Source of the DNA: a virus
Taxonomy: Duplodnaviria; Heunggongvirae; Uroviricota; Caudoviricetes
Virus record (IMG/VR): IMGVR_UViG_2547132488_000014
Coordinates: 1-11,916 of that record
Direction: 5' to 3' (one strand)
Length of the DNA stretch: 11,916 nucleotides
In this document: piece after piece, positions 1-11,916 of the stretch
Numbering within the stretch: the first letter of the stretch is position 1
Layout: every line of letters begins with the position of its first letter
Position numbers and translations under genes: made by a program
Notes under the pieces: model-generated
What the model saw: only the letters and a program-made list of their open reading frames with translations
Told to the model about the DNA's origin: nothing
Database searches by the model: none

Positions 1-501
1 TTTTATTGTCTCAGGGTTGAGATTTTTTTCTTCAAATTGTTTAGCATCGCCAGATAAAAATTTATTAAACTTAGTTAGTTCGCCTGCAGGAACAGTTCTT
101 TGTATTTCTACATATACAACATTTCGCTCTGGGAAATTATCTCTGCGCCATTTCATCTGTTTAAATTTTGCAGTCCTGTTAATATTTTTATCTTTTGAAA
201 TAGGCTTGTCAGTCAATTCGAATCCAATTTCCCAATCACTCATTGAATCATCCCCATAAAATGATTTAGGGAAAAACTTGCTTGGCTTAACATTTTTATA
301 AGCGAGAGCTACAGCACCTAATATAGTCGACTTCCCTCCACCATTAGTCCCGATAAGAGCTGTAACTGGTGTTTTAAACTCCACAATTTCCTCATCAAAC
401 CCTCTGACATTTTTTAATGTGATACGTTTAACATATTGATTGAATTTATTATCTTGAACCTTACCCCTTTCTAACTTCAATTCTGCTGGAGATAATTTCA
501 T
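1..501 (-). CDS. P-loop NTPase with SMC/ABC-type Walker A motif; N-terminal 167 codons only, 3' end beyond the left window edge
   Basis: Manual minus-strand translation from ATG (499-501) is open to position 1: MKLSPAELKLERGKVQDNKFNQYVKRITLKNVRGFDEEIVEFKTPVTALIGTNGGGKSTILGAVALAYKN... Walker A GTNGGGKST. AAGGA Shine-Dalgarno about 6-8 nt upstream; in-frame stop immediately upstream (511-513). Absent from the ORF track because it has no stop inside the window. Visibly AT-rich compared with the tail genes. Confidence 0.65.
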   Translation of the reverse strand, partial: MKLSPAELKLERGKVQDNKFNQYVKRITLKNVRGFDEEIVEFKTPVTALIGTNGGGKSTILGAVALAYKNVKPSKFFPKSFYGDDSMSDWEIGFELTDKPISKDKNINRTAKFKQMKWRRDNFPERNVVYVEIQRTVPAGELTKFNKFLSGDAKQFEEKNLNPETIK

Positions 502-534
502 TTTAATTCCTTAGTTATAATCACAATAAACATC

Positions 535-579
535 AACTTCACACTAATAATTTCATTTAGAAATTATTAGTGTGAAGTT
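535..579. repeat. Perfect inverted repeat: 20-bp arms (535-554 and 560-579) around a 5-bp spacer
   Basis: AACTTCACACTAATAATTTC / attta / GAAATTATTAGTGTGAAGTT; arms are exact reverse complements. Lies 34-78 bp upstream of the ATPase start codon, so a candidate operator or insulating hairpin. Confidence 0.9.
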
Positions 580-596
580 TATAACCAAACAGACGT

Positions 597-668
597 TTCA
601 TCGCTTCATCGCTTCATCGCTTCATCGCTTCATCGCTTCATCGCTTCATCGCTTCATCGCTTCATCGC
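597..668. repeat. Tandem array of nine perfect copies of the octamer TTCATCGC (GCGATGAA on the - strand)
   Basis: Direct reading: units start at 597, 605, 613, 621, 629, 637, 645, 653, 661, with partial units on both flanks. Intergenic, 96-167 bp upstream of the ATPase start. No intervening spacers, so not a CRISPR array. Confidence 0.95.
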
Positions 669-887
669 TTACCAATATATGTCTTCTCGTTACATAAGAA
701 AAGCATCAGCTGAACGTAATGTCGGAAGCCCCATTGGAAAACCGTCACACCTAATAAATTCAGTACGTTATAAAACAGGGTTGTGATATTTTAAGCCAGT
801 ACCCATGCTAGTAAATATCTACTTAATACATTGATTTTTATGTGTTAAATAAAATCGTTGCCTACATATTGCCTCACTTCGACAGTA

Positions 888-907
888 AGCCCGCAACGTT
901 GCGGGCT
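888..907 (-). terminator. Palindromic GC-rich hairpin 5 nt downstream of the methyltransferase stop codon; putative terminator
   Basis: AGCCCGCAACGTTGCGGGCT is a perfect 20-bp palindrome. The U-tract is better in the + direction (TTTGTCTT) than in the - direction, so terminator function for the - strand operon is uncertain. Confidence 0.45.
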
Positions 908-912
908 TTGTC

Positions 913-1704
913 TTATGCTTCGATCGCCGTTTTGAGCCGTTGTGTTGCTACATCAAAATAATGATCACTGGTTTCTATACCAATAAATTTGCGTCCTGCT
1001 TTCAGCGCTGCAACACCCGTTGTTCCCGATCCCATAAAAGGATCAAGGACTGTTCCACCACTATTCGCAGTCCTGACCAGTTCTGCCATAAGTTCTTCTG
1101 GTTTTCCGGTCGGGTGCATTTTCTTTGATGGGATAACCGGGAACGTCATGCAGCCGTCGAACGGTCCCGAAGGCGATTTATCTAAATGGCCTTTACTGCC
1201 CCAGACGATGTATTCGCACTGATGCCGGAAATACCCCGTATGGGGTGTTCGTGACCCCCTTCCTTTGTTCCACGCAATGATGCCGCGCCATGTAAAGCCA
1301 CTGGCCTGAAACGCATCGGTTAAAGCTGGTAATTGTCGCCAGTCAGTAAATACCAGGGCATAACCGCCCGGCCTGACTGCGCGGTGTGCCTGTGCCATCC
1401 ATAATTGTGTCCAGTAAGCCCACGAACGGGCGTCCATGTTTTCACCCGCGAACCCATCAAAACGGTGAAGGCTCTCGCCGTTCAGATATTTTGCATGGCT
1501 GCCCTGGTTGGTGCGTCCGGCCTTGTGTGTCGCACCCGAACTGTAAGGCGGGTCAGTGATTAAGGCATCAATGCTTTCTGGCTCAATCAGCGGCAATATT
1601 TCCAGCGCATTCCCACGACAGAGCGTGGCATTGTCAGTCTGATAAACCTTAGTGTGTTCCGGTGTATGTGCTGGTTGGTGCTGGATTGCGATCCCCACGG
1701 TCAT
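913..1704 (-). CDS. DNA amino-methyltransferase, beta-class (N6-adenine or N4-cytosine), orphan: no cognate restriction gene in the window
   Basis: 263-aa ORF with motif IV DPPY (ITDPPYSS) N-terminal to motif I FxGxG (DPFMGSGTT), the circularly permuted order typical of beta-class N6A/N4C methyltransferases. ATG at 1702-1704. Confidence 0.88.
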   Translation of the reverse strand: MTVGIAIQHQPAHTPEHTKVYQTDNATLCRGNALEILPLIEPESIDALITDPPYSSGATHKAGRTNQGSHAKYLNGESLHRFDGFAGENMDARSWAYWTQLWMAQAHRAVRPGGYALVFTDWRQLPALTDAFQASGFTWRGIIAWNKGRGSRTPHTGYFRHQCEYIVWGSKGHLDKSPSGPFDGCMTFPVIPSKKMHPTGKPEELMAELVRTANSGGTVLDPFMGSGTTGVAALKAGRKFIGIETSDHYFDVATQRLKTAIEA

Positions 1705-1846
1705 AACTCCTCATGTGTGTGGGGTGCTCGATGGCTCTCGTTATCTGGTTAAGTGTTTTGCAGCGCGGACATTTTATTTCAATGTAGTGAAATGAGGCGC
1801 GGGCAAGTAGTTTGTTGCAATTTTTGCATCGTACATTTTGCGTCAT
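1649..1846 (-). CDS. com: Com-like zinc-finger protein (phage Mu Com family translational activator), overlapping the methyltransferase start
   Basis: Translation MTQNVRCKNCNKLLARASFHYIEIKCPRCKTLNQI... has a CxxC-N16-CxxC zinc ribbon closely resembling Mu Com as recalled (RCKNCNKLL...HIEI.CPRCK). ATG at 1844-1846 with AGAGG Shine-Dalgarno 8 nt upstream; an in-frame GTG at 1853-1855 is the alternative start. Stop at 1649-1651 is 55 nt inside the methyltransferase ORF, in a different frame. Confidence 0.7.
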   Translation of the reverse strand: MTQNVRCKNCNKLLARASFHYIEIKCPRCKTLNQITRAIEHPTHMRSYDRGDRNPAPTSTYTGTH

Positions 1847-1893
1847 TTGCGGCACCTCTTGTGTGGTTACTGCTGCCGATATGATAACAAATC

Positions 1894-1928
1894 GATCGTT
1901 TTTATCGATCGGATTTATTGCATCGATC
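1894..1928. promoter_or_regulatory. Cluster of three GATC (Dam) sites, each within ATCGATC, in the presumed promoter region of the com-methyltransferase operon
   Basis: GATC at 1894-1897, 1907-1910 and 1925-1928, embedded in aATCGATCg, tATCGATCg and cATCGATCt. Lies 50-80 bp upstream of the com start on the - strand. Resembles the three-GATC regulatory region upstream of the Mu mom promoter. Confidence 0.4.
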
Positions 1929-1976
1929 TGTTATGCCTATTGCTTATGTATGGTGCCCTCATTTGTGAGGGTAGCA

Positions 1977-2010
1977 AAAAGAAAACCCGCAGTTTTTACG
2001 CTGCGGGTTT
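1977..2010 (-). terminator. Rho-independent terminator downstream of the TM2-domain gene
   Basis: Stem 1985-1992 ACCCGCAG pairs with 2001-2008 CTGCGGGT, extendable by two A:T pairs. On the - strand it is followed by UCUUUUUG. Sits about 25 nt after the TM2 gene stop (2036). Confidence 0.7.
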
Positions 2011-2035
2011 GTTGTTCTGATTCGCCCACTAGGCA

Positions 2036-2332
2036 TTAGCCATATTTGCGGGCAAAGTCTTCATCAGAGGTGCATAGATAGATAAAAAACTCAATAAATG
2101 CCACGATTGCCGGAATGAATGTCCAGCAAAAAATAAGGTAAAGGAATCCTTGCCCCACTTTACCTAAATAAAATTTGTGTGCACCAAGACCACCTAAAAA
2201 GAAAGCCAGTAGTGCGGCTGTCATTCTGCTTTTTGAACTTGCTGTTCTTTGAGGTGCTCCACAATTGGGGCAGGATGTGGCATCTTTATGTATTTCCTTG
2301 CCGCATCCGCGACAAAATACCATTTCACTCAT
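2036..2332 (-). CDS. Small membrane protein with N-terminal zinc ribbon and TM2 domain
   Basis: 98-aa ORF: CRGCGKEIHKDATSCPNCGAP (two CxxC) followed by two hydrophobic helices and a GGLGAHKFYLG motif typical of TM2-domain proteins. AAAGGAAC Shine-Dalgarno upstream of ATG at 2330-2332. Confidence 0.8.
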   Translation of the reverse strand: MSEMVFCRGCGKEIHKDATSCPNCGAPQRTASSKSRMTAALLAFFLGGLGAHKFYLGKVGQGFLYLIFCWTFIPAIVAFIEFFIYLCTSDEDFARKYG

Positions 2333-2467
2333 AAAGAGTTCCTTTCAAATTTAAATAAGCGTTAAGCCCACCACTCTTACTGGTGGGCCTCAATTTAAAT
2401 TTGGGTGCCACTTCGACCATACCTTGGCAACCGATTGACGGGGGATTGCTCCCCCGTCGCGGTTTCC

Positions 2468-2608
2468 TTACTGCTTACACTGTAAGAACGCCGCAAACTC
2501 CGCTCCCCAGAAGCTCATCCGTATTTCACACAGCGAACCGTGTAGCATCCAGATGATGAGGATTACCGTCACGCAGAACGTGATGGCCGTAAGCGATTTT
2601 TGCGACAT
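2468..2608 (-). CDS. hok: Hok/Gef-family type I toxin (small membrane-active killer peptide), 46 aa
   Basis: Manual translation MSQKSLTAITFCVTVILIIWMLHGSLCEIRMSFWGAEFAAFLQCKQ: short polar N-terminus, one transmembrane helix, SLCEIR identical to plasmid R1 Hok, and AAFLxCK tail as in HokA. AAGGAG Shine-Dalgarno about 7 nt upstream of ATG (2606-2608); TAA stop at 2468-2470. Below the length cut-off of the ORF track. Confidence 0.7.
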   Translation of the reverse strand: MSQKSLTAITFCVTVILIIWMLHGSLCEIRMSFWGAEFAAFLQCKQ

Positions 2609-2799
2609 AGCGCTTGCTCCTTTGTTGGAGAGGCGCTAACCTATCACTTGCTTAAGGTAGATATGTTAGGGCCTCGGTTAAACAAAAATGTTTTCCGGGG
2701 CCTTTCCACATCTGGCCTTCGGGTATTCCCTCCGACCATCAGCCGAAAGGCACCCGCGCGTAATCTATCGCTTTTTTGTTACTCCGGCAATTCTGCCTG

Positions 2800-3060
2800 T
2801 TAATTCTGAGGTAAAGGCAAACTCATCTGATTGTTTCCCCTGTGTGAAGCTGGCAGTTCATGCCACGGGATACCTTCTGAAGAGTGAACGCCGGAGGCAT
2901 GTTTCGATGTGAATTTATGGAAAGCTTCCAGTGTTGAGAAGCATACGCCGCATTCCAGATTGTTACACTGGTAATACTTTTGCCGCACGGTGTTTGAATC
3001 ATTTTCCGGACGACTGGTGCGGATACGGGCAGATGCGCCACAAAGCGGACAACGGAACAT
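2800..3060 (-). CDS. ogr: Ogr/Delta-family zinc-finger transcriptional activator of phage late genes
   Basis: Begins MFRCPLCGASARIRTSR...YYQCNNLECGVCF, matching the N-terminus and Cys spacing of P2 Ogr as recalled (MFHCPLC...). Immediately downstream of gpD, as in P2. Confidence 0.85.
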   Translation of the reverse strand: MFRCPLCGASARIRTSRPENDSNTVRQKYYQCNNLECGVCFSTLEAFHKFTSKHASGVHSSEGIPWHELPASHRGNNQMSLPLPQN

Positions 3061-3102
3061 AGCGACCTCCCTTAACGTGGTGCTGCCGCTATTCTAAGTT
3101 GC

Positions 3103-4212
3103 TCACTCTGTTTCCGCTATCCATTCCGGGATTTTTGCCTCAAGCTCAAGCTGCGTGGTAAAGCCGCTGTTATCAATGGTGTGCTCGGCTTTTGCAATAA
3201 TCCAGTCCTGATTATCAATCTCGCTTTTAAATCCTGTTACCGTGCCATGCATTTCGGGGTAGAGTTCTGCACGTCCACGCGCCAGCGTGATGGAGAATGA
3301 TGCGGCTCCGCGTTGTAGCTGCTGCCACTTTGCCGCCGCTGCGCGTCTTGCTGCCTGCTCGTTCTGATAAGTCTTGCGTAACACAAACACATTGCCTTCC
3401 GCGCCTTCCATATAATCACCTTCACGGCTGCTGCTTTTCTCCTTTTTGGGCTTGGGCGGTTTGCGGCGTTTCACGCTGACTTTTTTCTTTTTCCCGTAAT
3501 TAAGATCAAGCCAGTAAGCGCGTACCCCCGTATACGCTTCGCGGTCAGCAATGCGGAACTGATGGCGATCGCCGCTGCTGCGTGTGATGGCAAACGATGG
3601 CAACGGCTGGCCCTGTGCGTTCACGCCGCCGCCGGGCATGATGAATAACAGATTACCGCTTTTTACCGTGGTGATTGCGCCCAGCATTTCCGCCATGCGC
3701 GTAAGGAAGGACATGTCGCTTTCTTCGGTCTGGTCGGCGTGGTCGATTTCGATATCCATCAGCATTTCGCTGATTTGCGGTTTCAGACCATACCGATGAG
3801 CGATGGCGGATACCACACGCTCAACGGTCACATCATGCCAGGACACCTCACGTTTAACGTTAAATTCATCCCGAAAATCTGCGCTTCTGGCTGAAACAGT
3901 CAGCCTGTCCGGCGGTCCTTCGTGAGCGATTTCATCAACAATGTAAGTGCCTTTTTCTGTCAGCGGTTCTCCCTTCCAGCCAATGAGAACCGTCAGGCGC
4001 GCGCCCCGTGGCGGTAGCTGCAACTGACCATCCGCATCATCCAGCATGATGGTGAGCTGGTCCGCCTCAAATCCCCGGTTGTCGGTCAGTGACAGGCTCA
4101 TCAGGCGCTCTGCCACGCCTGACAGCGTTTTACCCTCCGCGAGAATATCAAAATCCGGCATTTTCACGGGGTCTGTGCCCTGACTGAGCAATTGCATGGT
4201 GGTGTCGGTCAT
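3103..4212 (-). CDS. D: Tail protein gpD (P2 late control gene D family)
   Basis: Large ORF directly upstream of ogr on the same strand, about the size of P2 gpD. Start set at the internal ATG (4210-4212; MTDTTMQLL...), preceded by GGGAGGGAG. The ORF-track start at 4344 adds 44 residues with no ribosome-binding site. Confidence 0.85.
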   Translation of the reverse strand: MTDTTMQLLSQGTDPVKMPDFDILAEGKTLSGVAERLMSLSLTDNRGFEADQLTIMLDDADGQLQLPPRGARLTVLIGWKGEPLTEKGTYIVDEIAHEGPPDRLTVSARSADFRDEFNVKREVSWHDVTVERVVSAIAHRYGLKPQISEMLMDIEIDHADQTEESDMSFLTRMAEMLGAITTVKSGNLLFIMPGGGVNAQGQPLPSFAITRSSGDRHQFRIADREAYTGVRAYWLDLNYGKKKKVSVKRRKPPKPKKEKSSSREGDYMEGAEGNVFVLRKTYQNEQAARRAAAAKWQQLQRGAASFSITLARGRAELYPEMHGTVTGFKSEIDNQDWIIAKAEHTIDNSGFTTQLELEAKIPEWIAETE

Positions 4213-4369
4213 CTGCTCCCTCCCTGTGTGGCATGGTCGCATGTGCGTGCGGAGGGGGTTACTGCTTTTTGTTGTCGCCGTGGCGGGAGAATGGCGCAGG
4301 GGTGAGATTGCGCGCGTGGTGGGTGATGATTGTTGCCGAATCATTTAACGGATACAAGGGGCTGAAGCT

Positions 4370-5554
4370 ATGAGTGAAACTCGTTTTCATGGTGCCCGTG
4401 TTACGGAAAATACCGACCTGGTAACAGCGATTAACGATGTTGATTCCAGCGTTATCGGTATCGTGGCAACGGCGGATGATGCGGACGCGAAGCTGTTCCC
4501 GCTGAACAAGCCCACACTGCTGACCCGCGTCAATGACGTGCTGGGAAAATGCGGGACAACGGGGACGCTTTATCGTGCGCTTAAGGCCATCGCAGACCAG
4601 GTGAGCACAAAGGTGATCGTCGTTCGCGTGGCTGAACACAAAGAAGAAGACGGAAAAACGCAGGATCAACTGGTTATCGGTGGTTCTGAATCTGACGGCA
4701 GCTATACGGGGATGTATGCGCTGCTTGTTGCAGAGCAGGATGAAAGCATCGGATACCGTCCGCGTATTCTGGCCGCGCCGGAGCTGGACACGGAGGCGGT
4801 GACAAAATCCCTGTGCGTGATTGCGGGTAAACTGCGCGCGTTTGTGTATGCCTCATGTCACGGCTGTAACACGATGGCTGAGGCAATTACCTACCGCCAG
4901 AAATTCAACGAACGAGAGGTGATGCTCTTATGGCCGGACTTCATCGCCTACAACCCGAAAAGTGGCAAAAACGAAACGTTCCCCGCGCCTGCCTATGCGT
5001 GCGGCCTTCGTGCGTACATTGACCATGAACAGGGCTGGCACAAATCGCTGTCCAACGTTCCGGTTAAAAATGTGCTGGGGATGTCCGGGCATGTGTTCTG
5101 GTCGTTGCAGGCCGAAGACAGTGATGCCAACAGCCTCAACAACAAAGAAATCACGACCATTATTCGTCGCAACGGGTTCCGCTTCTGGGGCAACCGCACA
5201 CCGGAAACGAACGCCTACATCTTTGAGGTGTATACCCGAACCGCACAGGTGCTGGCTGATTCAATTGCGGAAGCGCAGTTTGAAACCATCGACAGTCCGC
5301 TGACGCCTGCGAACGTGAAGGATGTTATCAGCGCCATCAGGGCAAAACTGGATTCACTGGTGACTGCCGGGAAACTGATTGGGGCGTCGTGCTGGTATGA
5401 CGTGGTGGATAACGGCACCACGAATTTACGTCAGGGGCGCGTGCGTATTCGCTACAAATATACGCCAGTTCCCCCGCTGGAAGACATGGAGCTTTACCAG
5501 TCGTTTACTGATGAATTCTTTGGTCCCGCATTTGCGGTGCTGGGAGGTGCCTGA
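4370..5554 (+). CDS. FI: Contractile tail sheath protein (gpFI)
   Basis: 394 aa, first gene of a sheath-tube-chaperone-tape measure-gpU series; size and position as in the P2 FETUD operon. AAGGGG Shine-Dalgarno 9 nt upstream of the ATG. Confidence 0.88.
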   Translation: MSETRFHGARVTENTDLVTAINDVDSSVIGIVATADDADAKLFPLNKPTLLTRVNDVLGKCGTTGTLYRALKAIADQVSTKVIVVRVAEHKEEDGKTQDQLVIGGSESDGSYTGMYALLVAEQDESIGYRPRILAAPELDTEAVTKSLCVIAGKLRAFVYASCHGCNTMAEAITYRQKFNEREVMLLWPDFIAYNPKSGKNETFPAPAYACGLRAYIDHEQGWHKSLSNVPVKNVLGMSGHVFWSLQAEDSDANSLNNKEITTIIRRNGFRFWGNRTPETNAYIFEVYTRTAQVLADSIAEAQFETIDSPLTPANVKDVISAIRAKLDSLVTAGKLIGASCWYDVVDNGTTNLRQGRVRIRYKYTPVPPLEDMELYQSFTDEFFGPAFAVLGGA

Positions 5555-6066
5555 TGGCTGTACCAAAACATCTTCGCTTTTTTACGCTGTTTGTGGATGG
5601 TGAAAACGAAGTGGGTAAGGTGACGTCCGTCACCCTGCCTAAACTGACGCGCAAAACCGACAGCTACCGGGGTGGCGGCATGATGGGAGCGGTAAGTATT
5701 GATCTCGGCCTGGATGACTCCGCGCTTGATGCGAGCTTTGTCATGGGGGGCGCAGTTCGTGAGCTGTTCCTTAAGTATGGCGGCACGATTGACGGCACGC
5801 TGCTGCGTTTTGCGGGTGAATACTACACCGATGCAGAAAGCGACCTGTATGAAGTCGAAATGCGCGGACGTGTGACGGAAATTGATATGGGGGAAGCCAA
5901 ACAGGGCGAAGCCACATCACACACTTACGCCATTAAAAACACCTACTACAAGCTGAGTGTTAACGATCGCCCGTTGTGGGAGATTGACCTGCTGAACTTC
6001 ATCTACCGGAAGGACGGCAAGGACATTGTGCCTGACCGTATCCGTTCCGCGCTTGGGCTTGGCTGA
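5554..6066 (+). CDS. FII: Tail tube protein (gpFII)
   Basis: 170 aa directly after the sheath gene; its ATG overlaps the sheath stop (TGATG), indicating translational coupling; GGGAGGTG upstream. Confidence 0.85.
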   Translation: MAVPKHLRFFTLFVDGENEVGKVTSVTLPKLTRKTDSYRGGGMMGAVSIDLGLDDSALDASFVMGGAVRELFLKYGGTIDGTLLRFAGEYYTDAESDLYEVEMRGRVTEIDMGEAKQGEATSHTYAIKNTYYKLSVNDRPLWEIDLLNFIYRKDGKDIVPDRIRSALGLG

Positions 6067-6120
6067 TAAGTAATATGCAGGCGGCGCAGTGCGTCGCCTC
6101 TGACTGAAAGGAGTTTCCTG

Positions 6121-6486
6121 ATGAAAGAGACGAAAAACATCGATACCGAAAACACGGTAGTTACTGACACTGTGAAAGAAACCAGTGAGCGTGGCGTAAA
6201 ACTTACCCAACCCATTGAGCGAGGCGACGAAAAAATCACGTATGTGGAGATCACCGGGGCTATTGAGCAGGCTGGATCTCTGCGAGATTTGTCGCTGTCT
6301 GATGTGCTGAATCTGAAAGCGGAATCCATGTTTACGCTGCTGTCACGCGTGACATCACCGCGACTGGATGAAGTGACGATCAAAAAAATGGCATCCCGTG
6401 ACTTTATTCAGTTATGTGTGGTTGCCGTAAATTTTTTGAGCGGTGCGGACTCTGGCGGGAAGAACGAACAGGCGACGGAAGCCTGA
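6121..6486 (+). CDS. E: Tail assembly chaperone gpE (zero-frame product)
   Basis: 121-aa ORF between tube and tape measure genes; contains the slippery heptamer near its 3' end. Confidence 0.82.
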   Translation: MKETKNIDTENTVVTDTVKETSERGVKLTQPIERGDEKITYVEITGAIEQAGSLRDLSLSDVLNLKAESMFTLLSRVTSPRLDEVTIKKMASRDFIQLCVVAVNFLSGADSGGKNEQATEA

Positions 6487-6650
6487 TCACGGTTGTGTGC
6501 TTTGAGCACATAGAAGACTTTGTGGCAGATATTGCCGTTATTTTTAACTGGTCGCCCGCCGAAATCTTCATGATGACGCCCGGCGAAGTGGTTAGCTGGC
6601 GTGAGCGGGCGGCACTTCGCAGCGGGAGGGCAGACAATGAAGACTCTTGA
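6121..6650 (+). CDS. E': Tail assembly chaperone E+E', product of a programmed -1 ribosomal frameshift near 6432-6438
   Basis: The -1 frame ORF 6414-6650 overlaps the 3' end of E and ends at TGA 6648-6650, overlapping the tape measure start. The heptamer T TTT TTG sits in X XXY YYZ register in the E frame. Same architecture as P2 E/E'. Confidence 0.75.
6432..6438 (+). other. Slippery heptamer TTTTTTG (programmed -1 frameshift site for E/E')
   Basis: E-frame codons AAT TTT TTG place the heptamer in X XXY YYZ register; the -1 frame is open from this point to 6650. Confidence 0.75.
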
Positions 6651-9444
6651 TATCCGGGTCGCTTTCAGCGCCGTTGACAGGCTGACCCGGCCTGCCGAAA
6701 ACGCCCGCCGCCTGATGGGGCAGTTTGGTGACTCCATCCAGCGAACGCAGGGGGCGATCAAAAATCTCGAGCGTCAGGCGCGTTCATTTGAGCGCGCCCG
6801 CGACGCTGTCAGTAAAGCGGATGCGGGCATCGTGAAAGCACGACGCCAGCTTAACGCCCTTAATCAGTTACAACGCACGGGTACAGTGCTCAGCGAAAAA
6901 CAACAAAAGCTGATGCAGCAGTTAAGCACCCGGCTTGAACGCCTGAATGAATCGCGCACACGGGAAATTCAGAAAATGCGGGAACTTGGCGGAGAGCTGA
7001 AACGCCACGGCATTTCCCTGACAGGCAGCGATAACACCATCCAGCAGGCCATCAGACGCACCGAACAGTACAACAACCAGCTTGAACGCGAACGGCAGGC
7101 GCTTGCGCGTGTAACGCGGGCGCGTGAGCGGTATTCGCGCGCGCAGGAAACCGCGGGAAAACTGAAAACAGGTGGTGCGCTGGCAATTGGTGCGGCAGCG
7201 GCTGGCGGCTATGCTACCGGGCGTTTTTTGCAGCCTGCGATCGGGTTCGGGAAAGAGATGTCCCGCGTTCAGGCACTGACGCGAATCGACCAGAACAGCC
7301 CGCAGTTTAAGGCGCTGCGTGAGCAGGCGTTAAAACTTGGCTCTGAAACGCAGTTCACCGCAGGCGATGCCGCCAGTGGACAGGCATTTCTTGCAATGGC
7401 TGGCTTCACTCCACAGGCCATTCAGGCTGCGCTTCCCGGCGTGCTGAGCATGGCAACGGCTGGCGGTATGGATCTCGGCGAGACGGCAGATATTGGCTCA
7501 AATATCCTGACGCAGTTCGGCCTTTCTGCTGACCAGATGGACCGGGTCGGTGACACACTCACCGCAGCGTTTACCCGTACCAACACTGACCTTCGCGCAC
7601 TGGGCGAAACCATGAAATATGCAGGTCCGGTGGCGGGTAAGCTGGGAATATCGCTGGAGCAGGCCGCAGCGATGGCTGGCGTGCTGGCGAATATGGGCAT
7701 CAGAGGGAGTGATGCCGGGACGGCAATGCGTGCCAGCCTGGCTCGTCTGGCATCACCGCCAAAGGCGGCGGCAGAGGCGCTGAAAGAGCTTGGTGTGGCA
7801 GTTTCTGACGCGAACGGCAAAATGCGCCCGATGGAGGATGTGCTGGCCGACCTTTATAAAGCCACCCGCAAATACGGGGAAGTTGACCGGGTATCCTTCT
7901 TTAAGGACATCGCCGGGGAAGAGGCTTTCACATCGTTTATGGCGCTCGTTGATGCGGCAGGTGACGGTTCCTTACCCAAACTGAGAAAAGAACTTGAAGG
8001 CGCACGCGGTGAGGCTGAACGCACGGCAAAGGTTATGGCCAACAACCTTGATGGCGATCTGAAATCACTCGGCAGTGCATGGGAAGGGTTGCGCATCCGC
8101 ATTGCAGATCTGATTGACGGCCCGCTGCGTTCTGTCACGCAGTGGCTCACGCGGGTGGTATCAAGGGTGACGGCGCTGGCGCAGGCCCATCCGGCACTGA
8201 CGCGCCAGTTACTGATAGCAGGCGGTGCGTTGCTGGCAATGACTGCAACGATTGGCTCGTTGTCGCTGGTTATTGGCGTGCTTCACGGGAAACTGGCCAC
8301 GTTACGTCTTGGTTTTTCTCTCCTGACCGGATCAATGAATGTCGTCAGGGTGCTGCCAGCACTATGGGGAATGGTAACAGGTTCCATCTCGTTGCTGGGT
8401 GGCGCTATCGGGGCGCTGTTCAGTCCGGTCGGATTGATTGTTGCCGCGTTTGTGGCTGCGGCGGTTCTCATCTGGAAATACTGGGAACCCATCAAGGCGT
8501 TTTATGCCGGGGTGTTCAGTGGGATTATGGAACGGCTGGCTCCGTTGCGCGAAACCTTTGAACGGTTTGGTCCTGTTTTTGATGTCGTGCGCGATGGGAT
8601 TATTCAGCTCTTTAACTGGTTTAAATCGCTGCTGTCACCGATGGAGTCCAGCAAGGAAACGCTGGATAAATGTACCAGTGCTGGCGAGATATTCGGTAAC
8701 GTTCTTGGTGGCGCGCTACAGCTTGTTCTGACGCCTGCAAAAATGCTGCTGGATACGCTGGCGTGGATACTTGAAAAACTCGGTGTGCTTCCGGATGAAG
8801 CGGAAAGGGCGAGAAAGAAAATCGAAGACGCACAGCGTGCGGCCATTCTTCAGGACAAGGTTGCCTTGCTTCAGGGGGACCTGGCGAAAATCAATCCGCC
8901 GAAGCCTGTGGAAAATGGCAATGGCACCGGAGGTGATAAACCCAAAGACAATAAACCGCTCACAGACAGCAACACCGGAACGCTACGCAGGCTCAGCAAA
9001 ATTGCTGATAACACAGGTAAGCTGGTTGATGAGACGAAAAAACGCATTGGCCCCGGCGATATTGTCTTTAAGAACCTGCCCCGCGCACTTGCTGTTCGTG
9101 GGGAGTGGCAGGAGCGGAAGATTGCGCAGGTCAGTAAGCCTGCCCCCGCAATTAATATCCCCCCCGTGGTCCCGGCTCCGCTGCCTCCGGCGCTGGTCCC
9201 TGTTGTTGCGGCCAGCTCCCGCCCGGTGGCGGAGGCCATACGATCGCCAGTGGCATCAGTTCCTGTAACTTCCCGTAACCGGGAGCCTGTTGCCTCCGGA
9301 TTTGGTGGTGAAATTCATGTTCATCTGCATAACGTTGTTACGCAGAATCCCCGCGAACTGGCGAAACTGGTCGGTGAAATGGTCAGGGCAGAAATGGAAC
9401 GGCGCGCCCGTGCCGGGCGTGGCAGTTTTTACGATAAAGATTGA
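6637..9444 (+). CDS. T: Tail tape measure protein (gpT)
   Basis: Largest ORF in the window. N-terminal coiled-coil-like region, central Gly/Ala-rich hydrophobic segments, Pro/Ala-rich C-terminal region. Start set at ATG 6637 (MKTLDIRV...), preceded by GGGAGGG, rather than the GTG at 6601. Confidence 0.9.
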   Translation: MKTLDIRVAFSAVDRLTRPAENARRLMGQFGDSIQRTQGAIKNLERQARSFERARDAVSKADAGIVKARRQLNALNQLQRTGTVLSEKQQKLMQQLSTRLERLNESRTREIQKMRELGGELKRHGISLTGSDNTIQQAIRRTEQYNNQLERERQALARVTRARERYSRAQETAGKLKTGGALAIGAAAAGGYATGRFLQPAIGFGKEMSRVQALTRIDQNSPQFKALREQALKLGSETQFTAGDAASGQAFLAMAGFTPQAIQAALPGVLSMATAGGMDLGETADIGSNILTQFGLSADQMDRVGDTLTAAFTRTNTDLRALGETMKYAGPVAGKLGISLEQAAAMAGVLANMGIRGSDAGTAMRASLARLASPPKAAAEALKELGVAVSDANGKMRPMEDVLADLYKATRKYGEVDRVSFFKDIAGEEAFTSFMALVDAAGDGSLPKLRKELEGARGEAERTAKVMANNLDGDLKSLGSAWEGLRIRIADLIDGPLRSVTQWLTRVVSRVTALAQAHPALTRQLLIAGGALLAMTATIGSLSLVIGVLHGKLATLRLGFSLLTGSMNVVRVLPALWGMVTGSISLLGGAIGALFSPVGLIVAAFVAAAVLIWKYWEPIKAFYAGVFSGIMERLAPLRETFERFGPVFDVVRDGIIQLFNWFKSLLSPMESSKETLDKCTSAGEIFGNVLGGALQLVLTPAKMLLDTLAWILEKLGVLPDEAERARKKIEDAQRAAILQDKVALLQGDLAKINPPKPVENGNGTGGDKPKDNKPLTDSNTGTLRRLSKIADNTGKLVDETKKRIGPGDIVFKNLPRALAVRGEWQERKIAQVSKPAPAINIPPVVPAPLPPALVPVVAASSRPVAEAIRSPVASVPVTSRNREPVASGFGGEIHVHLHNVVTQNPRELAKLVGEMVRAEMERRARAGRGSFYDKD

Positions 9445-9450
9445 GGAGTC

Positions 9451-9945
9451 ATGGCCATGATGATGATCTACGGCATGTTTGTTTTTGAGCTGCGCACGTT
9501 GCCGCATCAGCAGTTACAGCAAAACAAAAGCTGGCGGCATGTGAAAAATGAACGCGTTAACCGTTCAGCAAGCTGGCAGTATATCGGGGCAGGCGATGAT
9601 CGCATCGTTCTTTCTGGTGTGCTTTATCCTGAAATTACAGGTGGCGAAGTGTCGCTTTCGTTGCTGACCACACAGGCATATACAGGACGCCCCTGGCCTC
9701 TGATTGATGGTGTCGGGCAGATTTACGGCATGTATGTCCTGACCGGAACGAATACGACCCATTCCGAGTTTGATCGCTACGGTAAGGCGAAAAAGATAGA
9801 ATTTTCACTGACCCTTGAACGCTGTGATGAGGATTTGCGGGGGCGCCTGCAATCCTCATCGTTCAGCGATATGCTGTCCGGCTTCAAAGATAAGGTGACA
9901 GCATCCATTAACAACGCGGCCAGTTCAGTTAAAGGGCTGTTCTGA
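9451..9945 (+). CDS. U: Tail protein gpU
   Basis: 164-aa ORF directly after the tape measure gene, GAGGAG upstream. Start is ambiguous among ATGs at 9451, 9457, 9460 and 9463 (MAMMMIYGMFVFELRT...). Confidence 0.78.
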   Translation: MAMMMIYGMFVFELRTLPHQQLQQNKSWRHVKNERVNRSASWQYIGAGDDRIVLSGVLYPEITGGEVSLSLLTTQAYTGRPWPLIDGVGQIYGMYVLTGTNTTHSEFDRYGKAKKIEFSLTLERCDEDLRGRLQSSSFSDMLSGFKDKVTASINNAASSVKGLF

Positions 9946-9946
9946 T

Positions 9947-10159
9947 TTGGAAGAGCAGAGGCAGCAGGCGGAAAATGAAAAGCAAAGCCTGCTACAGCTC
10001 GTCAGGGATAAAACCCAGCTATGGGACTCACAGCTACGGCTGGGCATCATTTCCGACGAGAATAAACAAAAATTAACCGAGTGGATGCTCTATGCGCAGA
10101 AGGTCGAATCCACAGACACCTCCAGCCTGCCAGTAACGTTTCCAGAACAACCAGAATGA
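9947..10159 (+). pseudogene. Truncated tail fiber assembly protein (Tfa) C-terminal fragment, no ATG start
   Basis: The 70-residue reading frame (..QQAENEKQSLLQLVRDKTQLWDSQLRLGIISDENKQKLTEWMLYAQKVESTDTSSLPVTFPEQPE) aligns with the C-terminus of the intact Tfa on the other strand (..[63 protein letters not shown]). Frame is open only from 9899, has no ATG (first candidate is TTG at 9947, 1 nt after the gpU stop), and lacks the N-terminal two thirds. Confidence 0.6.
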
Positions 10160-10162
10160 AAC

Positions 10163-10189
10163 AAGGCCCGCTATCGGGCCTTAATTTTT
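10163..10189. terminator. Bidirectional Rho-independent terminator between the convergent Tfa fragment and Tfa
   Basis: Perfect 8-bp stem AAGGCCCG / CGGGCCTT with loop CTAT, followed on the + strand by AATTTTTATT. Lies 3 nt after the + strand stop and 5 nt after the Tfa stop on the - strand. Confidence 0.7.
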
Positions 10190-10715
10190 ATTCAGGCTTT
10201 TGTGGCCATTCAGGATTTGCCGTATCCACACGGCTGACCAGAACGCTGTAGCGTTCCCATGCTTCCAGTCGTGTGCGTTCCTCGTCTGTTGCCATATTCA
10301 GCCTGACAGCGCGTTCCAGCGGCTGGATGACTGATTCAGCTTCGGAAATCAACGCGGCCTTTTGTGATTCGGCCTGTTGTTGCTGTTCGTCAGCCGTATA
10401 AATCCGCTTAATCACAGCACCATCCTTAAACATCCATTTACCTGAGTCATCAGCACGTCGGTTGGCGGTAATATCAGGAACCTCGACAACGCTAAAACCT
10501 TCAGGGTTAAGCGTGGAGGCATCTTTGGTGATGGCGACAATAATATTATTTTCGTCGTATACAATCTTTATGGTGTCGTCCTGAAAGTTATTTACTTCCT
10601 CATACCAGTTTTTACCGTCTTCTGTATATAACCAGATAACATCAAAATTCTTTGTTAGCTGACATTGCTCTTTTGTTTTTGGATTTCCTGACTTAATATT
10701 TTTTAAATGCTGCAT
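10188..10715 (-). CDS. G: Tail fiber assembly protein (Tfa; P2 gpG / Mu U family)
   Basis: 175 aa with the conserved Tfa C-terminus (...[27 protein letters not shown]). ATG 3 nt after the tail fiber stop (TAA ATT ATG), AGGTG upstream. Confidence 0.88.
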
Positions 10716-10718
10716 AAT

Positions 10719-11916
10719 TTACACCTGTGCGACGTTATACCATGTGCCATTGATGTATTTTTGTATTGGTCTGAAGATGGCTTCATCATCGCCATCTACT
10801 TCACCAATGATTCTTAATCCGGTAATTGCGTGTCCGGCTTTTTCATAACGACCACCACGCGCCATCAATTGAACAACACGCGTACCCAGGCGAACATCTT
10901 TCACATAACGGGAATCAAAGTTACCGTAATCCGAGGGGTTAACACGCCCTGTAATATTTATGGTTTTATTACTTTGAATGCTGCCGGAGACAAAGCGCAT
11001 AACATGGACGTTATTAGCATAAACGTCCAGATTACCGTCGCCATTTTGTTTAAAGCCCGTGTCATTATCACCCAAAACAATCGAGTTACCGCCAAGAGCA
11101 CTGGATGTTCCGATACCCAGTGCACCATTCAATTGACCACCAGATAATGACAACGCCCCAACATCAGCAGCAGTCGGTTTTATGTGCGAACTGTAAATTA
11201 CATATACAGTCCCATCTGTCAGGCCTGTCGGTTTATTCGCTGTATAAGTTGGTGATGTATGAATTTGTACAGTGGCATCCTTTGTATAATCCCACTGGAT
11301 ATTAACACCCGTGGCGTAATTACCTATTTCTACATAAATGTCATAGGTATCACCGGATGTATTCACCCATGCAAAATTAGTAAATCCAACCGAGGTCCGT
11401 CGCCATAATGCACCAGTAATACCCTTTGGATTTCCATTTCCGGCACGCAGAACCAGCTCAGAGATGCCTGCTTGCTGCGGGGAGCCAACGTTATACCCTG
11501 CACCACCAATCAGACTTATGTAAACCACGGAACTGGCTTGTGGCATTGTTACAGTTGCCAGTTTGAACCATCCAGCACCACCACTAAAAGACATGGTTGT
11601 TGAATTTGTTGTGCCGATATTACGCAGGAATAGTTTTTTATCGGGAATATCTGCGCCGTTCTGGTTTTTCTGTAATGCGCCAGAAGCCTGATTTACCGTT
11701 TCCTGTAAACCGAGGTATTCGATAACGGCGGCAACGGTCGATTTCGCAAGAATATCCCGCCCTACTTTTGTCAGAGTTGCCAGGCTGGCGACATCATTCC
11801 CCGTAAAATACGGAAACCTGTCTGCCGCAGTAGCAAGCCCGGCCAGCGCCGTCAGGGTGGCATCTTTCGGTTGCTTACCCGCAAGCGCGTTAGTCATGGT
11901 GGTCGCAAAATTCGGG
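10719..11916 (-). CDS. H: Tail fiber protein (P2 gpH-like), C-terminal part; 5' end lies beyond the right window edge
   Basis: Frame is open to the window edge with no stop upstream of the listed Met at 11897, so the gene is 5'-truncated by the window. Contains the tail-fiber junction motif ...LTALAGLATAADRFPYFTGNDVASLATLTKVGRDILAKSTVAAVIEYLGLQET... followed by a Gly/Ser/Thr/Asn-rich distal region. Directly upstream of Tfa. Confidence 0.85.
   Translation of the reverse strand, partial: PNFATTMTNALAGKQPKDATLTALAGLATAADRFPYFTGNDVASLATLTKVGRDILAKSTVAAVIEYLGLQETVNQASGALQKNQNGADIPDKKLFLRNIGTTNSTTMSFSGGAGWFKLATVTMPQASSVVYISLIGGAGYNVGSPQQAGISELVLRAGNGNPKGITGALWRRTSVGFTNFAWVNTSGDTYDIYVEIGNYATGVNIQWDYTKDATVQIHTSPTYTANKPTGLTDGTVYVIYSSHIKPTAADVGALSLSGGQLNGALGIGTSSALGGNSIVLGDNDTGFKQNGDGNLDVYANNVHVMRFVSGSIQSNKTINITGRVNPSDYGNFDSRYVKDVRLGTRVVQLMARGGRYEKAGHAITGLRIIGEVDGDDEAIFRPIQKYINGTWYNVAQV
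11700..11725. other. gix/cix/pix-like 26-bp sequence (candidate Gin/Pin-family DNA invertase crossover site) inside the tail fiber gene
   Basis: TTCCTGTAAACC GA GGTATTCGATAA compared with the Mu gix site as recalled (TTCCTGTAAACC GA GGTTTTGGATAA): 24 of 26 identical. Encodes the IEYLGLQE junction of the fiber protein. Confidence 0.45.

Follow-up and report, generated by a model that had tools for sequence, protein, structure and literature searches.

The tail genes FI to U of a P2-like phage are inverted, relative to their order in phage P2, in the sequence analyzed here, an 11,916-nt stretch of a Caudoviricetes virus (IMG/VR record IMGVR_UViG_2547132488_000014, positions 1 to 11,916; the window from here on). 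In all likelihood, the window is the tail end of a Peduoviridae prophage of the Xuanwuvirus (P88-like) type that combines an old inversion fixed throughout a clade, a promoter region between genes D and FI whose two predicted late promoters (PD and PF) would share one activator site, and a deletion in the tail-fiber cassette private to this genome.

Genes were called from a six-frame list of open reading frames (ORFs) and from Pfam profile scans of the whole window. The features that bear on the inversion, its junctions, and the tail-fiber cassette are the following.

2800-3060, minus strand: ogr, ogr/delta-type zinc-finger late activator (Pfam Ogr_Delta, E = 5e-14), 42 nt 3' of D
3103-4212, minus strand: gpD, baseplate hub/late control D (Pfam Phage_GPD)
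4213-4369: D-FI intergenic region, 157 bp, predicted bidirectional late promoter PD/PF
4370-5554, plus strand: FI, tail sheath (Pfam Phage_sheath_1, Gp18_domIII_N, and Phage_sheath_1C)
5554-6066, plus strand: FII, tail tube (Pfam Phage_tube, E = 7.5e-47)
6121-6486, plus strand: E; E+E' arises via a -1 frameshift and ends at 6650
6637-9444, plus strand: T, tape measure (Pfam PhageMin_Tail, E = 2e-58), start in agreement with the P88 and ETEC1749 annotations
9451-9945, plus strand: U, tail protein (Pfam Phage_P2_GpU, E = 7e-39)
9946-9949: deletion scar 9948/9949, from pairwise alignment with P88
9949-10159, plus strand: tfa' (U'-type) remnant of an alternative tail-fiber assembly gene, in a 70-codon ORF at 9947-10159 (Pfam Caudo_TAP)
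10163-10182: bidirectional intrinsic terminator, the tfa'/tfa hairpin (terminator scan of both strands)
10188-10715, minus strand: Tfa, G/U-type tail-fiber assembly protein, full length (Pfam Caudo_TAP, E = 4.6e-37)
10719-11916, minus strand: H tail-fiber gene, C-terminal 398 codons, frame open to the window end, equivalent to P88 gp39
11700-11725: gix/cix-type crossover site within H, at the constant/variable boundary, a match to the P88 crossover sequence

Pfam matches were obtained for FI, FII, E/E', T, U, D, and ogr, the homologues that mark a P2-like tail and late module. The Phage_P2_GpE match lies in the ORF of the -1 frame (6414 to 6650), and a P2-like slippery site, TTTTTTG (T6G), is present at 6432 to 6438 for the frameshift that yields E+E'. 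The counterpart of ogr in Escherichia coli ETEC1749 is annotated as an ogr/Delta-like protein. For D, the ATG at 4212 was taken as the start, since the Shine-Dalgarno sequence GGAGGG 5' of it (reverse complement of 4219 to 4224), the P88 annotation, and the alignment of the clade all agree with this position; an in-frame upstream ATG at 4242, picked by a script, was dropped. The window edges fall inside H on one side and inside a nuclease gene on the other. Where the window departs from P2 is in gene order: in the P2 record, H, G, FI, FII, E, E', T, U, D, and ogr are all co-directional and FI to U, D, and ogr form one F operon, whereas in the window FI to U are on the plus strand and D and ogr, as well as tfa and H beyond the other end, on the minus strand. 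An earlier reading made from the letters alone (the sequence-only reading) had described these strands and the P2 order in the same way, and the spacer and the hairpin terminator that it placed at 4213 to 4369 and 10163 to 10182 were found as it had them.

The nearest deposited phages by megablast belong to Xuanwuvirus (94 to 97% DNA identity) and comprise P88, P884B11, Citrobacter phage PhiSM, Chuche, PhiR44_2, 520873, 500465-2, and 503458. The identity to P88 and P884B11 is 94 to 97% over positions 2403 to 9948, whole-genome identity being beyond the scope of an 11.9-kb window, and gpD is 98 to 99% identical to the D proteins of Xuanwuvirus and 49% identical to that of P2. The annotated P88 and PhiSM records read D (minus), FI-FII-E-E'-T-U (plus), invertase (minus), Sv'-tfa' (plus), and tfa-H-I-J-W-V (minus), and the window follows this Xuanwuvirus layout of D, FI to U, tail-fiber cassette, and minus-strand H-to-V genes with the deletion in the cassette as its sole departure. 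P88 is mitomycin inducible, forms plaques, and has a contractile tail by electron microscopy (PMC5285337); PhiSM is released spontaneously, forms plaques, and lysogenizes K-12 (PMC6456863). Insertions of the IS100/IS21 family were seen within the tail region of two close Xuanwuvirus relatives, NC_049344 (520873) and NC_049341 (503458).

The same layout turned out to be widespread. FI is divergent from D in 80 of 80 IMG/VR loci retrieved with the gpD of the window, and of 5,426 complete E. coli genomes, 1,358 carry the D/FI junction uninterrupted, as judged with an 801-bp probe (3900 to 4700) that was matched at 100% identity in four. It occurs as well in Klebsiella phage Kp4871-3 (Reginaelenavirus, gpD 70% identical), in Salmonella phage SEN5 (Senquatrovirus, gpD 63%), and in the partial record of Serratia phage KSP20. 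Species-representative genomes, one per species, were then scanned by a gpD alignment search and the hits were classified by tblastn; the results that follow concern the best 80 of 340 hits. All 59 loci with a gpD 61 to 99% identical to that of the window are inverted, and all 20 classifiable loci with a gpD 47 to 54% identical keep the P2 order, one further locus being unclassifiable. The 59 inverted loci carry about 27 Enterobacterales genus names, from Salmonella, Klebsiella, and Enterobacter to Xenorhabdus, Photorhabdus, Providencia, and Morganella. Among these 80 hits, the closest gpD matches are in E. coli, in a record named "Salmonella enterica s1," and in a "Vagococcus" contig. The latter (L088; NZ_JBQPOM010000071.1, "Vagococcus sp. 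WN89Y," a Firmicute label) is a 226-kb contig with a P88-type prophage whose gpD is 98% identical, and it probably represents enterobacterial contamination or a mislabeled assembly. The inverted D/FI layout was also seen in Xenorhabdus and Photorhabdus loci with a gpD 62 to 66% identical (L120, L123, L125, L130, L133 to L136, and L139), which may correspond to the xenorhabdicin- or photorhabdicin-type tailocin clusters of the literature.

A gene order unlike that of textbook P2 is, then, no evidence of rearrangement or misassembly here: it is the norm of a clade present in a quarter of the complete E. coli genomes. The architecture is already known, being plain in the annotated records of Xuanwuvirus, Reginaelenavirus, Senquatrovirus, and KSP20. 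No remark on the orientation of FI to U was found in the papers searched on P88, PhiSM, SEN4/SEN5, the global diversity of P2-like phages, and Xenorhabdus tailocins or in reviews of tailocins. The sequence-only reading had suggested an undescribed lineage architecture in which D and FI need promoters of their own; this was essentially right except for the "undescribed," since the layout is annotated in deposited genomes.

The P2 order is found in P2 itself (gpD 49% identical), in Wadgaonvirus 500465-1 and Salmonella phage SopEPhi (53% each), and in phiCTX, Burkholderia phage KL3, and Mannheimia phage 535AP1. Because it is common to phages of beta-proteobacteria and Pasteurellaceae, we take it to be ancestral. 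The FI-U inversion appears to have happened once, long ago, and to define a clade of Enterobacterales Peduoviridae, a single origin being drawn from these comparisons and not from a family-wide tree. The P2 F operon minus D would have been inverted once, so as to lie now between the V-W-J-I-H-G operon and D-ogr. The state before the inversion was likely that still seen in Wadgaonvirus and SopEPhi, with an invertase gene, or a fragment of one, directly 5' of FI; in P88 the invertase has kept its place and direction relative to H, and it is the FI-U block between invertase and D that is flipped. The orientation splits Enterobacterales Peduoviridae cleanly at about 55 to 60% gpD identity and is a handy synapomorphy for classification.

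We next turned to the D-FI spacer. An alignment was made of 58 distinct spacer sequences (57 inverted-clade loci and the window), and the spacers were reanchored without gaps on the best TGT-N12-ACA match 69 to 91 nt 5' of the FI ATG, conservation being scored over 59 distinct inverted-clade sequences and 13 P2-order controls. Nearly all inverted-clade loci have a spacer of about 145 to 161 bp with one dyad near the middle, and in the inverted-clade comparison conservation is confined to this dyad, two -10 elements, and a CAYGCGCGCGCG tract. The elements predicted in the window are the following.

4273-4290, center 4281.5: predicted Ogr-binding dyad TGTCGCCGTGGCGGGAGA, TGT-N12-AGA, with one mismatch to the P2 consensus TGT-N12-ACA
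4325-4330, plus strand: predicted PF -10 hexamer GATGAT, with a predicted start at about 4337-4339
4233-4241 (reverse complement), minus strand: predicted PD extended -10 TGcGACCAT, with a predicted start at about 4225-4227

At the dyad position, the exact TGT-N12-ACA is present in 37 of 62 inverted-clade loci, and 19 of the 62, the window included, have one mismatch; the D-FI spacer of the window has no exact copy. The dyad center lies 74 to 88 nt from the FI ATG in the clade versus 83 nt for PF of P2. On the FI side, a.A..AT hexamer occupies positions +43.5 to +48.5 from the dyad center, with the A residues at +44.5 and +47.5 and the T at +48.5 each conserved in 96% of the 59 inverted-clade sequences and in 92% of the 13 P2-order controls. 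PF of P2 has GAAAAT at the equivalent position, and its start is mapped 57 to 58 nt from the site center (P2 record). The D-side element is the mirror image of the PF hexamer, at -43.5 to -48.5. There, the conserved positions of the inverted clade are -44.5 (T, 94%), -47.5 (T, 74%), -48.5 (A, 91%), -41.5 (C, 89%), and -40.5 (A, 61%); in the P2-order controls these positions are at background only (30 to 46%). Read on the D strand, the element is an extended -10, TGn(A/G)A..AT, and its conservation peaks at the key positions for sigma-70 (the TG, A-11, and T-7).

The predicted starts, at about 4338 (plus) and 4226 (minus), are about 112 bp apart and about 55 to 57 nt to either side of the dyad center. 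In the P2 record, one activator site (3057 to 3087) serves both PP (start at 3016, minus strand) and PO (start at 3127, plus strand). From the center of this site it is 56 nt to the PP start and 55 nt to the PO start, and the two starts are separated by 111 bp. By the inversion, the start of D would have come to adjoin the PF promoter and the Ogr-binding dyad of that promoter. A second late promoter, PD, would then read D, which has lost its connection to the F operon, and probably also the ogr gene behind it; PD would use the opposite face of the same dyad, as the divergent PP and PO of P2 share one activator site. The spacer is most likely a second shared-site, bidirectional, Ogr-dependent late promoter, as this geometry suggests; so read, it is a new instance of a known P2 mechanism, and the second case is a testable one. 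If the reading is true, the captured dyad is a clean natural case in which a symmetric activator site lets an inversion break an operon without loss of co-regulation.

The CAYGCGCGCGCG tract is an alternating purine-pyrimidine sequence (4239 to 4251 in the window, CATGTGCGTGCG; loci L089 to L143) conserved at 57 to 72% per position in the inverted clade. It is found on the D side only, between the Ogr dyad and the predicted PD -10 and so within the predicted PD spacer, and is absent from the P2-order relatives. It could be a spacer constraint, the site of a second regulator, or a Z-DNA-prone sequence. On balance, we favor the view that the clade gained a bidirectional PD/PF by capture of the opposite face of the dyad-symmetric Ogr site and that the CAYGCGCGCGCG tract might add further control of D and ogr.

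The other side of the block has a different history. In the alignment with P88, the window is nearly identical through the U stop codon and three more bases (TGATTT). Then come a clean gap of about 1,970 bp and, inside tfa', renewed near-identity that continues through the terminator into tfa. The DNA absent relative to P88 holds the F-operon terminator, the serine invertase gene, one crossover site (TTATCTAAAACCTCGGTTTACAGGAA), Sv', and the first 108 codons of tfa'. The collinearity with every relative ends exactly at 9948/9949. No match to this junction was found in 5,426 complete E. coli genomes, 50,697 phage records, the species-representative genomes (searched with the exact 38-nt junction), or the 80 IMG/VR loci. 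The junction does not lie at a repeat, and because no microhomology is evident at its endpoints the deletion is called illegitimate and not site specific. The remnant of tfa' is its last 69 codons (Caudo_TAP profile positions 62 to 131 of 131) and aligns to the 3' end of P88 gp41; its bases 9949 to 10050 match gene U of phage PhiR68_1 at 100% identity and U' of Mu and P1 at 96 to 97%. Since this fragment is a relic of the deleted cassette, it lies outside the inverted block, the boundary of which is at about 9948. The sequence-only reading had set the right edge at 10187, with the junction at the terminator, and had counted the Tfa fragment as part of the flipped block; both have to be revised, as the block inverted relative to P2 ends just 3' of U and 9949 to 10187 aligns with the tail-fiber cassette of P88.

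The ancestor would have carried a Gin/Cin/Pin-type invertible tail-fiber cassette between U and H, as P88 does. The invertible segment of P88 is bounded by 65-nt inverted repeats (two crossover sites) about 3 kb apart and contains a terminator identical to that at 10163 to 10182. In the window, only the site at 11700 to 11725 matches the P88 crossover sequence (a single match with 2 mismatches, 0 expected by chance), and there is neither an invertase gene nor a second Sv-tfa cassette. The tail-fiber switch is dead in the window. The simplest reading of 9948/9949 is a real deletion, private to this genome and illegitimate, of about 1.97 kb that would have locked the tail fiber in one form; such a deletion is one route by which a phase-variable host-range switch becomes locked. 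The terminator at 10163 to 10182 is now the first one 3' of U, and F-operon transcripts would run past the tfa' relic and end at this bidirectional, cassette-internal hairpin. Natural versions without invertase exist among the relatives, for example in ETEC1749. After the U stop (9946 to 9948), at least three unrelated modules start right past TGATTT(AA) in relatives L001 to L083 and L167: a terminator plus invertase, a "TGCTGGCCACTCATACC" module, and a terminator followed directly by tfa. As alternative modules start there across the lineage, we regard the point after the U stop as a recombination or module boundary.

Several observations weigh against the account given so far. The species-representative sample, as the best 80 of 340 hits, is biased to close relatives. 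The dyad of the window and its nearest subclade is TGT-N12-AGA, and one-mismatch matches occur at chance frequency throughout the window; such a lone match is uninformative, and the site is credible because the position-anchored comparison shows it to be conserved. PD, with its start site and Ogr dependence, is inferred from conservation and geometry. The 9948/9949 junction is unique to this sequence and carries some small probability of a local assembly error. Finally, the shared-site promoter model does not account for the conserved CAYGCGCGCGCG tract on the D side, so that D could be subject to an additional or alternative control.

An alternative built on this last point is that the promoter of D is independent of Ogr, or answers to a second regulator through the CAYGCGCGCGCG tract, and does not share the activator site of PF. 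This we consider unlikely, though it deserves to be taken seriously: the GC-alternating tract at 4239 to 4251 is conserved solely in the inverted clade and solely on the D side, the predicted PD has an extended -10 (TGn) of a type able to work without an activator, and ogr of P2 has an early promoter of its own (P2 record). Against this, the D-side hexamer stands at the exact mirror distance from the dyad center, a spacing held across otherwise unalignable sequences; P2 already drives two divergent late promoters from one site; and D, as a structural late protein, is expected to be co-regulated with the tail genes.

That the block owes its orientation to an assembly artifact, a contig misjoined or flipped at repeats, is very improbable. 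Invertible tail-fiber regions are known trouble spots for assemblers, and the 9948/9949 junction was matched in no other sequence of the collections searched. The D/FI junction, however, recurs in finished genomes with up to 100% identity, the U-side junction is at neither a repeat nor a crossover site and has both flanks collinear with P88, the repeats nearby are only 72 to 78% similar and too divergent to collapse, and variants without invertase in which U converges on tfa occur in complete genomes such as ETEC1749. An artifact is excluded for the block orientation because the same layout is present in so many relatives, finished genomes included; the sequence-only reading had listed this option, which does not survive the 1,358 contiguous junctions among the 5,426 E. 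coli genomes.

The other option listed there, a recent inversion fixed in this prophage or a tailocin-like remnant of a P2-order phage, has very little left to recommend it. The order does differ from that of P2, and there is some decay (invertase absent, tfa' truncated), but the same orientation and junction are found in plaque-forming phages, in the 1,358 E. coli genomes, and in all 59 loci whose gpD is at least 61% identical (about 27 genera), and no inverted repeats flank the block. The promoter geometry of the spacer is kept clade-wide, which argues for long-standing selection. As for a tailocin, defined by the absence of capsid, packaging, and replication genes, the window spans only the nuclease gene to H, and its close relatives are complete phages. 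The sequence-only reading had proposed a comparison of gene order with the nearest relatives and had held that many related functional phages of identical organization would make the layout a lineage norm; the relatives all share the inverted layout (P88 and PhiSM, 80 of 80 IMG/VR loci, the 1,358 genomes, and 59 of 59 loci), and the fixed inversion confined to a prophage or tailocin remnant is rejected for the block orientation.

The idea that FI-U is an invertible segment under programmed control, turned by the serine invertase next to it so as to switch tail expression, is scarcely credible. Although the invertase abuts the U end of the block in P88-type genomes and the FI end in the P2-order Wadgaonvirus, all of the about 140 inverted-clade loci examined have the block in the same orientation, a search for gix-like sites or inverted repeats bracketing 4213 to 10187 found none, and many clade members, including SEN5, ETEC1749, and most species-representative loci, have no invertase. 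From its position next to the U end in the one group and the FI end in the other, the invertase does sit at an inversion breakpoint, and at most it may have catalyzed the original inversion event.

Beyond ogr, the window continues into an accessory arm with the following genes.

913-1704, minus strand: N6/N4 methylase (ORF list and Pfam)
1649-1855, minus strand: Com-like zinc ribbon protein (ORF list and Pfam)
2036-2332, minus strand: TM2/zinc-ribbon protein (ORF list and Pfam)

The com-like gene overlaps the start of the methyltransferase gene, an arrangement that resembles com-mom of Mu with an enzyme of a different family. It also contains the only exact TGT-N12-ACA found inside a gene (1754 to 1771), which is at chance frequency. 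For most of the close relatives in the comparison, P88 and PhiSM among them, blastn gave no match to the segment with the TM2/zinc-ribbon gene (2018 to 2402), but ETEC1749 has it. The counterpart of about 2468 to 2608 (minus strand) carries an annotated toxin gene of the Hok/Gef family. By comparison with ETEC1749, positions 1 to 501 (minus strand, about 34% guanine plus cytosine) are the N-terminal part of an "ATP-dependent nuclease" gene that runs off the window and looks like a low-GC accessory gene of the defense type. Between the nuclease and methylase genes, at 532 to 582, there is a near-perfect AT-rich hairpin of 20 to 23 bp with a terminator-like score on the minus strand.

Among known systems, the window is most like P88 and PhiSM, with which it shares the gene order and strands of ogr-D, FI-FII-E-E'-T-U, and tfa-H, the D-FI spacer, and the cassette terminator. 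It differs from them in being without about 1.97 kb (the U terminator, the invertase, one crossover site, Sv', and two thirds of tfa') and in having the TM2-domain gene and the com/methylase/nuclease arm, both absent there. The tail and late region of P2 has the same gene set, the same T6G -1 frameshift for E/E', and ogr after D, but its FI-U block is uninverted and D is inside the F operon, and the proteins are only 36 to 49% identical (tblastn). PF of P2 has the same geometry: about 83 nt separate the dyad from the FI ATG, and a.A..AT -10 hexamer lies about 49 to 50 nt from the dyad center. PP/PO of P2 likewise has one dyad midway between divergent late operons and nearly the same distance between starts (111 bp versus the 112 bp predicted here); the site of the window, however, lies between D and FI instead of P and O, its dyad has one mismatch, and its starts are predicted and not mapped as in P2.

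The tail-fiber cassette has its counterparts in the G segment of Mu, the C segment of P1 and P7, and the P segment of e14 (Gin, Cin, and Pin), the tfa and tfa' of the window being 93 to 97% identical to U and U' of Mu, P1, and P7. In common with these switches, it has a gix-type site at the constant/variable boundary of H and tfa and tfa' convergent on a shared terminator; unlike them, it is dead, with no invertase, one crossover site, no Sv', and a truncated tfa'. In Wadgaonvirus 500465-1 and SopEPhi, H-tfa, tfa'-Sv', and the invertase are followed by FI to U, D, and ogr, all co-directional, so that these phages, with a gpD about 53% identical to that of the window, differ from it in having the F operon uninverted and D inside it.

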